Shown in pieces: positions 1,444 to 13,857 of a DNA stretch of 64,000 nt; positions within the stretch are counted from its first letter, which is position 1; every line of letters starts with the position of its first letter. Made by a program: the position numbers and the translations under genes. Under the pieces are notes generated by a model. That model was given only the letters and a program-made list of their open reading frames with translations. It ran no database searches and had not been told where the DNA came from. Source of the stretch: Ptychodera flava (taxonomy: Eukaryota); NCBI RefSeq assembly GCF_041260155.1, contig NW_027248355.1:2516078-2580077 (forward strand). The letters run 5' to 3'.

Positions 1444-3369
1444 ATGGCTGCTGCTCCTGAACGTAAAGCTTTAGAAGAAATCAGTGAAGATTTCCTGTGT
1501 TGTACCATCTGTCTGGAGCAGTTCAAGTCTCCTAAAATTCTACCATGTCTGCATACATTCTGTGAGCAGTGTTTAGTCAAACTGGTTGAGAATACTGGAT
1601 CTCTAAACTGTCCAGACTGTCGACAGCAATATCAGCTTCCTGTTGGAGGAGTGCCAGCAATAAAAGGCAACTTCTTTATGAGCAATCTGATTGAGATATT
1701 CAAGCAACGACTGGAGTCTATGCAGGGAACTGAGATCAGGTGTGCAGGTTGCAAAGAGAACACAGCCACTCATATGTGTATAGAATGCAGACATTATATT
1801 TGTAACAGCTGTGTCAAGGCTCATAGAAATCTGCCAATCACACAGACACATCAACTCATGACCATTGGAGAATATGAAACAGCAAAGTCAACCAATCCAG
1901 TAACACTACAAGCAGTGGAATATTGCCGTCTCCATAGAAAGAATGAAATTGAATTCTATTGTGAAACCTGTCAGGTACCTGTATGTTCAAACTGCACCAT
2001 AGTCGATCACCGCATCCCAGAACATGTACACAGAAACTTGAAAGATGCAGCAGATGAGTATCTCTCTGAACTGAAAACCATGGTTGACAAACTGAAAGTG
2101 AAAGAACAGGAAGCTGAAAAAAACAAAACCCTAGCCAAGCAGGTACAAAGTGATCTTACCGAGCAGTGCAGCAGAGAAGAAAGGAAGGTGAGAATGAAAG
2201 CAGAAGAAATCATCAAGAAAATAAAGAGAGAAGAGCAGAGACTGATAGATGAACTGAAAGACAATTACAAAATAAAAATTAAAAAGGCAGCTGTTGATAT
2301 TGATGAGATGGAATTAAAACATGGTAACATTAAGAGTGCATGCAGTTATATAGAGACACTGATGCATCATGGGAATGCTGCTGAACTTCTGTCAACAAAG
2401 GATGATGTTGGCACTCGTATAAAGCAACTGATTACCATGGAAACTACCGCAAATCTTGAACATGATGACTTCATATTCGCACCACATGATGAATTCTCTG
2501 AGCGTGGGATATTTGGAATACTGAAATCTGATGTGTGTATGTCAAAGTGTACAGTTGAAAACATTCCAAAACAACTATGGAGAGGTGAATCTGCAGACCT
2601 ACTGATCACAACCAGAGATTCCACTGGAAAACAAGTCATCCCAAAACAACAAGTGAAAGCCAAGGTAAGAAAACCTAATGCATCATGGGAAGACATCAAT
2701 GTATCTGATAACAGAGATGGTACACACAGAGTTACAGTGGCTGGACAATTGGATGGAAAATATCATGTTTCCATGGCAATAGGAGATCAACCAATACCAG
2801 GCTGTCCTGTCATCATACCTGTCATCAAAGGATTGGTGAAGACCATTGGGTGCCAAGGAAGTGCTGAGGGACAATACAGTAATCCCTTGAGTGTGGCCAT
2901 AAACAAGGACAGAGACACTGTCACTGCAGATACAAGCAATAATAGGTTGCAGATACATGTAAGCACCAGAGAGGGAAAATTCAAGAAAATCTTGAAATTC
3001 AAACAGTTTGAAAAGCCTTTCATACCATGTGATATAGCTATATCAAGGGATAATACCTATTATAGTTTAGAGGACAACAATAAGCAAGTAGTTGTCAGTG
3101 ATGAGAATGGACATGTCATCAGATGCTTTGGACAAAATGAGTTGAAAGATCCATGGGGTATTGGGATTAGTCCTGTAGATGGCAATGTCTATGTGACAGA
3201 TGAGGGAGAGAATTGTGTCAGGATTTATACACAACATGGCAAATATCTTAAGTCATTTGGGTCAGAAGGTATAGGTCAAGGGCAATTCAATCGTCCCTGG
3301 GGTGTAGTCATTTCAAGTACTGGTCCAGGAATGGTATTTGTAGCAGACCACTATAACCATCGTATCCAC
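1444..3369 (+). pseudogene. TRIM2/TRIM3-like E3 ligase (RING, two B-boxes, coiled coil, filamin repeat, NHL repeats), 5' 642 codons. The ORF is intact up to the insertion breakpoint at 3369/3370 and then runs into inserted sequence, reaching a stop at 3417.
   Basis: ATG at 1444. The RING motif CTICLEQFKSPKILPCLHTFCEQC...CPDCRQ closely matches the TRIM2/3 RING. B-boxes: CAGCKENTATHMCIECRHYICNSCVKAH and CRLHRKNEIEFYCETCQVPVCSNCTIVDHRIPEH. A K/E-rich coiled coil follows, then a filamin-like segment GKYHVSMAIGDQPIPGCPVIIPV, then NHL blades (YSNPLSVAI, NGHVIRCFG, PWGIGISPVDGNVYVTD, FNRPWGVVI). It is co-linear with the paralog at 18499–20702 until ...ADHYNHRIH, where the sequences diverge. Confidence 0.8.
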
Positions 3370-3717
3370 CCGTACGAAACAGATTTTTGTGGTAAACATG
3401 CTGCAAGCTCTGGGTAAACATACCACGCATACTTTTGTGTGCCACAACACTCTATCCTCCTGCGCCGATAGTCACCACTAGTGGTGCACTTGTGGTGATT
3501 AGCAATCTTTCTCTTGGTATGTCTACCACAAGACTGAAGTAAACAAAGTTGCAGATTGCTTTGTGGTATGTTTGCCATTGAAGGCTTACGTAAATACAAT
3601 GGTCACACAGCACAGACTTTACAGAATCATGTGTAAGAATTCAAGGCTGCACGGTTACAGGGCAGCCAAATGACGTGTGTGCCCAGCTGGCTTCTGTAGA
3701 TGTACCGTATATCATAT

Positions 3718-4288
3718 TGTTACGTGCAGAGAAAACGAACAAAAGGGTGAACTCAGCAGTTTACGTTTAAACAAAATTTATTACGAAAACAAAACTAATT
3801 GCTAAGTCAGGGACAGAGTACAAGCTTTAAAGTGTACAGACTACTTATCTCAGCTGGGACGGCAAAGCTCCAGTCTCAGAGTTGTAACAGTCAGTCGGAT
3901 GAATGAACAGTCCTTTGGCTTGCAGGCTTGAAGCTGCACAAAGTCCACAGTATAAATCCAGCGTTGACAGTGAAGGTCTTGAAAAGTCTTGAGAATGACT
4001 ACTGCTGGAGTTTAGTAACACACAAGAGACACGATCCCAAAAGTCTGACTGGAAGCTGAGCACGTCCCTTTTATAAAGGCATATAAGAACAATCTAGAAC
4101 TTTTATTGACATGCTAATTACTGTTCTAAAATTATCTCTCTTACACAACTAATCAACTTTCCAGAACATTCCAAACATGACTAATTGAATTCAAGGTTGT
4201 GAGGTCATTAAGGGCAGTGACCTTGAGAATGTTCTAGACTAATTGAACTCAGGTCATGATGAGTGTGGGGTAAATGACCTACATGACA
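3718..4288 (-). repeat. 3' LTR (element orientation)
   Basis: Near-identical to 9415–9985; TG..CA termini. Confidence 0.85.
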
Positions 4289-13400: not shown

Positions 13401-13564
13401 AACATACCAGGACATGCATGAGTGTCGTGGTAAGCATACCACAATATGTGCGCCGCAAAATCCATCAACATGCGAAAATCTCAAGCTATACGTAAGCTTA
13501 CCAGGCAATTATGAAGACTTTACCAGAACTGTTCGCCGCAAGGCTTTAATTTTCGTAAGGGCAG

Positions 13565-13857
13565 GTTTTCAATGCACATGACCAGTATTTGTATTCCTTT
13601 GATTGTCAGAGTGGGGATGGTCAGATGAGATATCCCAGGGGAATAGCAATTGAAAATGAGAAATATGTCTATGTTACTACTGAGATCCCTAGTAGTGTAC
13701 TGAAGTTTGAGAGTAGTGGTAAGTTTGTTTGTCGTATTGATAGTGATGGGGATAAGCTGAACCACCCCACTGGTATAGCACTGACAGATGATGTACCTTG
13801 CAGGGTGGTTGTAGCAGACTGGGGCAACCACTGCATCAAAGTGTTTGTACAGTGATA
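13565..13857 (+). pseudogene. Displaced 3' fragment (last ~97 codons, final NHL blades) of the TRIM2/3-like gene that starts at 1444.
   Basis: It translates in frame from gtt at 13565 (VFNAHDQYLYSFDCQSGDGQMRYPRGIAIENEKYVYVTTEIPSSVLKFESSGKFVCRIDSDGDKLNHPTGIALTDDVPCRVVVADWGNHCIKVFVQ*), co-linear with 20419–20702 of the paralog. The 3' flank at 13858–14100 aligns with 20703–20950. Confidence 0.75.

Follow-up and report, generated by a model that had tools for sequence, protein, structure and literature searches.

A tandem TRIM2/3-like gene of Ptychodera flava split within an NHL repeat by a probable DNA transposon with a nested, probably Gmr1-like retrotransposon

Introduction

Cut-and-paste DNA transposons are typically built with short terminal inverted repeats (TIRs) and clustered subterminal repeats, and the removal of transposons as introns is known from the Ds and dSpm alleles of maize and, more systematically, from introners, whose splice sites are reportedly supplied by the end of the element together with the target duplication. 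Among Ty3/Gypsy retrotransposons with long terminal repeats (LTRs), an integrase that precedes the reverse transcriptase, as it does in copia elements, defines the Gmr1 clade. Here we analyze a stretch of 64,000 nucleotides from the hemichordate Ptychodera flava (NCBI RefSeq assembly GCF_041260155.1, contig NW_027248355.1, positions 2,516,078 to 2,580,077 of the forward strand; hereafter the window, with coordinates counted from its first base), which carries two tandem single-exon copies of a lineage-expanded class VII TRIM gene (TRIM2/TRIM3/TRIM71-like). The first of these, copy 1, is split in its coding sequence by an insertion of about 10.2 kb, and the second, copy 2, serves as the uninterrupted reference for the insertion site.

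We regard the locus, with a probability of roughly 0.85, as an ordinary recent disabling of a TRIM-NHL copy by a non-autonomous DNA transposon, which subsequently received a nested Gmr1-like LTR retrotransposon. In the literature, we found neither a description of the P. flava TRIM-NHL family nor an account of this interrupted allele.

Results

The coding sequence of copy 1 lies in two parts on the plus strand. The 5' part (1444..3368), which was delimited by the listing of open reading frames (ORFs), by Pfam, by blastn against copy 2, and by matches to NHL structures in the PDB, comprises codons 1 to 641 and the CA of codon 642 and encodes a RING, two B-boxes, a coiled coil, a filamin repeat, NHL repeats 1 to 3, and most of repeat 4. 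The displaced 3' end (13564..13855) supplies the last base of codon 642, codons 643 to 738 (VFNAHDQY...KVFVQ), and a TAA stop, and accounts for the end of NHL repeat 4 and for repeats 5 and 6. Between the two halves lie 10,195 bp of foreign DNA. When the region of copy 2 was compared with the first 15 kb of the window by blastn, one block joined 18267-20410 to 1211-3368 (90.3% identity over 2,165 nt), a second joined 20409-20916 to 13562-14077 (84.6%), and a weaker one, upstream, joined 18117-18224 to 1050-1158, so that the two copies match across the coding sequence, about 400 bp upstream of it, and about 220 bp downstream. A chance co-linearity is ruled out by this match of more than 2 kb at 85 to 90% identity, broken at a single nucleotide. 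In a tblastn search with the rejoined protein, codons 1 to 644 were placed at 1444-3375 and codons 643 to 738 at 13565-13852, and no third locus was found in the window beyond copies 1 and 2.

At the nucleotide level, the homology stops at 3368 and restarts at 13562, with the dinucleotide CA at both junctions. The left CA (3367..3368) was recognized by comparing the junction with the empty site of copy 2, ATCCAGGTA, and by the 2-bp overlap of the blastn blocks, and the right CA (13562..13563) by blastn and the same junction comparison; together they form an apparent 2-bp target-site duplication, the uninterrupted empty-site sequence being CGTATCCAGGTTTTCAATG. The transposon begins at base 3369, and the native codon 642 consists of CA and the G at 13564, that is, CAG (Q), which gives RIQVF as in copy 2 and all paralogues. 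Removal of the insertion restores a frame of 738 codons without a stop. The break falls in the conserved N-H-R-I-Q/V-F strand (the slash marks the break) of the fourth of six NHL repeats, displacing half of repeat 4 along with repeats 5 and 6.

These comparisons uphold most of a preliminary description of the locus, made from the sequence alone, in which a TRIM2/3-like gene co-linear with 18499-20702, flanks included, was said to be interrupted within an NHL repeat by a composite insertion of about 10.2 kb: the blastn blocks bear out the co-linearity, and the insertion consists of two mobile elements, one nested in the other, with separate termini and target duplications for the two. The displaced tail was rightly taken to be in the correct frame with an intact stop (TAA at 13853-13855 by tblastn), copy 2 is, as proposed for checking, free of the segment, being uninterrupted at ATCCAGGTA, and the 5' half does run into the stop assigned to 3417 (3415-3417). 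The placement of the split after about 642 codons also stands, whereas the exact breakpoints need correction, since homology ends at 3368 rather than 3369 and resumes at 13562 rather than 13565. The histidine given there as the last residue of the 5' half is not native, its CAC being a hybrid codon completed by transposon base 3369, and the coding sequence ends at 13855, not at 13857.

The foreign DNA begins and ends as a DNA transposon would. The outer element, including what is nested in it, occupies 3369..13561, with TIRs at both homology breakpoints, and measures 3,921 bp once the inner retrotransposon and one ATAT are removed (3369-3717 plus 9990-13561). Its left arm (3369..3717) opens with the TIR CCCGTACGAAA at 3369-3379 and holds four sites of the motif GTGGYAARYATACCAC within 3389-3578; its right arm (9990..13561) holds three motif sites within 13352-13442 and closes with the TIR at 13551-13561 (reverse complement CCCTTACGAAA). 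The 11-bp TIRs, CCCGTACGAAA and CCCTTACGAAA, agree at 10 of 11 positions and sit exactly at the two breakpoints; the calculated chance of a 10/11 match is about 8e-6 per register. The subterminal motif, which is 16 nt long and partly palindromic, is matched 15 times in the window, whereas shuffled sequence leads one to expect 3; ten of the 15, at 7 sites, lie at most 210 bp from the ends of the outer element, and none lies in its interior 3.3 kb. Among the ORFs of the outer element, those of at least 45 codons gave no Pfam match even at E values up to 1, and those of at least 60 codons had no homologue in a database of 5.8 billion proteins, for which reason we consider the element non-autonomous. 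A blastn comparison with the whole window revealed no second copy of the insertion within the 64 kb, and scans with Rfam and for tRNA genes gave no match inside the insertion. From its termini and subterminal repeats, the outer element would be a non-autonomous cut-and-paste DNA transposon, and no transposase assigns it to a superfamily.

Several known groups were considered and rejected. A Helitron was rejected, as neither the 5'-TC and CTRR-3' ends nor an A/T target is present, and piggyBac was rejected because the ends read CCC..GGG but the target is not TTAA. The apparent CA duplication speaks against Tc1/mariner elements, which insert at TA. The same holds for ISL2EU, the target duplication of which is typically AT (PMC4122938). 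In the right arm, a nearly perfect palindrome of 110 bp (10356-10465) has 57-nt arms that are 98% complementary around a 5-nt loop, and the region containing it (10340-10481) bears a 16-bp exact direct repeat, GGCTATTCTGTTGATA, on both flanks; it may represent a small insertion of foldback type, or else a hairpin of the element itself.

The inner element is an LTR retrotransposon of 6,268 bp (3718..9985), which lies on the minus strand in the left part of the outer transposon and is flanked by a 4-bp target duplication, ATAT, at 3714..3717 and 9986..9989. In the orientation of the element, the 5' LTR lies at 9415..9985 and the 3' LTR, with its TG...CA ends, at 3718..4288; both are on the minus strand, as are all features of the element given below. 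The polypurine tract GAAGAGGGGGTG (4289-4300) adjoins the 3' LTR, and the primer-binding site TGGGGGCTTGTCCGGGAT (9394-9411) begins 3 nt inward of the 5' LTR; the latter departs at a single base from the site by which murine leukaemia virus binds its tRNA-Pro primer. Although the LTRs are nearly identical (571 bp, 99.65% identity, no substitutions, and two 1-bp indels in A-runs), the pol region changes frame at least five times relative to uninterrupted homologues. The coding regions follow one another as gag with a SCAN-like capsid (7642-8631), protease (motif DTGAS, 7720-7734), integrase (5749-7055, with the H2C2 zinc-binding, rve catalytic core, and C-terminal domains), reverse transcriptase (about 5176-5768), and RNase H (4720-4986).

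The gag ORF matches PF02023 (SCAN) with an E value of 1.2e-12, and the SCAN domain is homologous to the gag capsid of Gmr1-like Gypsy elements (PMC4592553). An integrase ahead of the reverse transcriptase is also found in the uninterrupted homologues P0128 (H2C2 at residues 82-138, rve at 159-254, p58_C at 400-433, and RVT_1 at 577-648) and P0142, and in a related Gmr1-like element at an independent locus in ENA (L001, ERZ26273219, contig ctg28987, 6472-11821), which has 72 to 76% nucleotide identity and the same order of SCAN gag, integrase, reverse transcriptase, and RNase H; a local rearrangement as the source of this order is thereby ruled out. No outer-element sequence is present at L001. 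On these grounds, that is, the SCAN-capsid homology and the integrase-before-reverse-transcriptase order, we call the inner element Gmr1-like, and its domain content and order mark it as a probable member of that Ty3/Gypsy clade. The copy is defective and was presumably mobilized in trans; because a copy with a frameshifted pol and substitution-free LTRs must have moved very recently, an active helper element should be present in the genome. Hundreds of similar integrase proteins occur on megabase-sized ENA contigs, so that at least one further large genome is rich in this clade.

The sequence and its public annotation offer two routes along which the reading frame can be followed. Translation read through from 1444 halts at 3415-3417, yielding 657 residues, of which the final 15 are encoded by the transposon. 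The best database match, XP_070549642.1 (P0001; 663 residues), corresponds residue for residue to 1444-3371 and 13565-13628 translated as one joined sequence, which means that RefSeq treats 3372..13564 (10,193 nt, plus strand) as an intron. The GT of the modeled donor, CCC/GTACGA, is formed by bases 4 and 5 of the left inverted repeat, and the AG of the modeled acceptor, GGGCAG/G (13563-13564), combines the A of the right CA duplication with the next host G. This splice leaves CCC in place of the host G, a net gain of 2 nt, and the modeled protein consequently consists of 643 correct residues and an out-of-frame tail of 20 residues, FSMHMTSICIPLIVRVGMVR, with its stop at 13626-13628 and without NHL repeats 5 and 6. 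Under read-through and under the modeled splice alike, the final 96 residues are lost; either product is missing the terminal part of the NHL domain, and the six-bladed propeller cannot close. Judging from the fold, NHL function would be lost.

An enumeration of GT and AG dinucleotides near the junctions returned 28 cryptic GT..AG pairs across which the frame would stay open. The pair 3362/13559 (junction 3361^13560) would give a protein of 737 residues, one short of the native length, that reads ...NHRQVF..., and the donor of the pair 3392/13559, GTG/GTAAAC, lies inside a subterminal repeat. The preliminary claim that no GT donor exists in a phase reconnecting the halves is therefore wrong as written. 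It had also named a spliced mRNA joining the 33xx region to 13565 as an observation that would speak against an insertion; such a junction is indeed present in the predicted RefSeq model, but the insertion stands, and it is the transposon that has been annotated as an out-of-frame intron. An ancestral spliceosomal intron at this position is ruled out, as copy 2 is uninterrupted at ATCCAGGTA and the paralogues P0002-P0011 read through RIQVF.

The age of the insertion can be approached from both elements. The synonymous divergence (Ks) between the gene copies is 0.16, against zero LTR substitutions in 571 bp, and hence the retrotransposon insertion is much younger than the gene duplication. For the outer element, the sole clock is the displaced exon, for which polarized residue counts are more informative than the ratio of nonsynonymous to synonymous divergence (Ka/Ks). 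Polarized against nine outgroup paralogues, 2 residue changes in the displaced 96 codons are specific to copy 1 and 5 to copy 2, the corresponding counts for the whole protein being 28 and 29. Ka/Ks is 0.79 in the displaced part and 0.60 in the rest of the NHL region, the segment being too short to separate these values. The absence of stops from 96 codons is by itself a weak sign of recency, but the displaced exon shows no excess of change, from which we conclude that the insertion is recent. The recent date, which the preliminary description gave as one of two possibilities, the other being a polymorphic locus, holds both for the displaced codons, which have gained no extra change, and for the LTRs, which have gained no substitution.

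The rejoined protein places copy 1 in class VII by its full domain set, namely, RING, two B-boxes, coiled coil, filamin, and six NHL repeats. Pfam recognized the RING at residues 20-59, two B-box stretches, the better at 159-197, and a filamin/ABP280 repeat at 365-456, followed by NHL repeats, and a putative coiled coil was read by eye in the KEQEAEKNK... stretch. The NHL region matches PDB structures of the NHL domains of Thin, TRIM71, TRIM2, and TRIM3 with E values from 7e-44 to 7e-36. Copy 1 thus has the N-terminal RING/B-box part of a class VII TRIM protein and, once rejoined, the filamin repeat followed by a six-repeat NHL propeller; in its present state, it encodes just about 3.5 NHL repeats. 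A protein database search with the rejoined 738-residue protein returned 193 relatives at E ≤ 1e-20, the nearest being P. flava proteins annotated as "tripartite motif-containing protein 2-like," followed by those of Glandiceps talaboti and Saccoglossus kowalevskii. Numerous P. flava members of the family, especially on one contig of 29 Mb, have only 420 to 550 residues and lack the N-terminal or the C-terminal part; the P. flava TRIM-NHL family is thus large, tandemly duplicated, and rich in fragments already.

Copy 2 (18499..20702, plus strand), with its empty site ATCCAGGTA at 20405-20413, is itself damaged. Tblastn locates it in two segments, 18499-18549 and 18546-20699, and relative to copy 1 it is without one C of GAAGATTT(C)CTGTG, after 18548 (site 18541-18555). 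Past residue 17, ahead of the first RING cysteine, this 1-bp deletion puts the sequence out of frame, and a stop follows some 25 codons further on; with the one base restored, the remaining 733 codons are open. The use of this paralogue as an intact reference in the preliminary description thus did not hold. The protein of copy 2 is absent from the database matches, whereas P0001 of the same contig is present among them, as would be expected if copy 2 had been annotated as a pseudogene or not annotated. The frameshift could be a real pseudogene mutation or an error of sequencing or assembly; a high general rate of indel errors is disfavored because the 2.2-kb frame of copy 1 is clean. A 101-bp repeat occurs twice at 98% identity (20985-21085 and 52235-52335), the first time just downstream of the point where the duplicated unit of copy 2 ends; it may be a further dispersed repeat, marking the boundary of the duplication.

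The window as a whole has 35 to 42% G+C with scattered ORFs. An element resembling a miniature inverted-repeat transposable element is present in two 428-bp copies (30053-30480 and 50113-50540), 19.6 kb apart, in opposite orientation and 97% identical, each containing inverted repeats some 90 bp long. Tandem arrays, the units of which measure about 146 bp and about 227 bp, lie at 33947-34560 and 37479-38164, with dispersed relatives at 35952-36184 and 36483-36702, and long (TGTA/TGTC)n microsatellites lie at about 33500-33670, at 36214-36340, and at 60100-60284. A tRNA-Leu gene at 52968-53049 on the minus strand is the only match of Rfam or ARAGORN in the window.

Discussion

We propose that the present structure of copy 1 arose in two steps: (i) a non-autonomous transposon of 3.9 kb would have entered codon 642 between its second and third bases, duplicating CA, and (ii) a defective Gmr1-like retrotransposon would later have entered the left part of this transposon in antisense, duplicating ATAT. 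Several points weigh against this sequence of events or against what we derive from it. Several cryptic GT..AG pairs would keep the frame, and the loss of function is probable rather than observed; the pairwise Ka/Ks of 0.6 to 0.8 in the NHL region cannot separate fast adaptive evolution from relaxed constraint, and copy 1 may have been dispensable already before the insertion. As to the outer element, its mobility, its true ends, and its superfamily rest on a single copy, the apparent duplication CA differs from the TA or AT that known groups with 2-bp duplications prefer, and a coincidence of two bases has a probability of 1/16.

An alternative that shares the anatomy but not the outcome is that the insertion has become a newly made, real intron, in which case an in-frame cryptic splice would keep the gene functional and the locus would record a single transposon-driven intron gain. 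RefSeq does model 3372-13564 as an intron, with its GT inside the inverted repeat and its AG made of the target duplication and a host G, the subterminal repeats contain the donor-like sequences GGTAAAC and GGTAAGC, and among the frame-keeping pairs 3362/13559 would yield 737 residues with only one missing. However, the sole splice that has been modeled adds 2 nt and wrecks the last 96 codons instead of restoring the frame, its donor CCC/GTACGA and its purine-rich acceptor GTAAGGGCAG look weak by eye, and we found no paper that links introners with Ptychodera; we consider this intron gain quite improbable. A bolder version, in which the outer element belongs to an intron-creating transposon family in a deuterostome, its insertions into exons are spliced out, a cryptic in-frame pair such as 3361^13560 rescues a nearly native protein, and copy 1 is a snapshot of intron birth in a gene that had only one exon before, strikes us as very improbable.

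The order of the two insertions could be questioned in that the outer transposon may already have carried the LTR retrotransposon when it entered the gene. Both events are young, as seen from the substitution-free LTRs and the undecayed displaced exon, and the window offers no means of dating one insertion against the other; yet LTRs with an age near zero are best explained if the retrotransposon came last, and a non-autonomous element of 10 kb is a poorer substrate for transposition than one of 3.9 kb, so that we hold such a one-step arrival to be unlikely. That the interruption is an artifact of assembly, a chimeric join or a collapsed repeat in a gene that is in reality uninterrupted, would be in line with a contig that is a 2.86-Mb scaffold and not among the chromosome-sized contigs, and with the small indels in the A-runs of the LTRs and in copy 2. 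Against this, the left and right junctions coincide at one nucleotide position within a single codon and come with a 2-bp duplication and inverted repeats that match, and the inner element has a clean 4-bp duplication of its own; a misjoin would not yield such a structure, and we give this explanation hardly any credence. The successive entry of a transposon and a retrotransposon into an exon therefore remains the account that we prefer.

The locus bears on the use of public sequences as well as on the evolution of the family. XP_070549642.1 is the product of a gene truncated by a transposon and ends in a nonsense tail, and it should not stand in for a regular TRIM2-like protein. Birth-and-death turnover within the large hemichordate TRIM-NHL expansion can be seen in both copies, the nested pair indicates very recent activity of a Gmr1-like retrotransposon family in P. 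flava, and the outer part presents an unclassified element with an apparent 2-bp target duplication. Should the transposon prove to be cleanly spliced, the locus would be a dated conversion of a transposon into an intron in a deuterostome.

To conclude, each component of the locus is of a known kind: TRIM-NHL expansion, a Gmr1-like element, a TIR transposon, nesting, and an exonic transposon that an annotation pipeline, and perhaps the spliceosome, takes out as an intron. Set beside other insertional disruptions in lineage-expanded class VII TRIM-NHL families, with which it shares the domain set, the tandem family, and a mobile element in a coding exon, copy 1 shows no difference in kind. The outer element resembles non-autonomous TIR transposons (dSpm/CACTA-Mirage, Ds/hAT, and ISL2EU derivatives) in its 11-bp TIRs, its apparent short target duplication, its lack of a transposase gene, and the clustering of a 16-nt motif in the two subterminal regions only; its apparent CA duplication sets it apart from Tc1/mariner (TA) and ISL2EU (AT), and with piggyBac it has the CCC..GGG termini in common but not the TTAA target. 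The inner element agrees with the Gmr1-like Ty3/Gypsy clade in its TG..CA LTRs, 4-bp target duplication, SCAN-matching capsid, and integrase ahead of reverse transcriptase and RNase H, and this copy differs in having at least five frameshifts in pol despite nearly identical LTRs. Finally, as with the Ds and dSpm alleles of maize and with introners, a public gene model removes the transposon, through a donor GT placed 3 nt inside the TIR and an acceptor AG made up of the target duplication and a host base; unlike introners, which are far shorter, the element measures 3.9 kb (10.2 kb with its passenger), and its modeled splice leaves 2 extra nt and shifts the frame of the protein.

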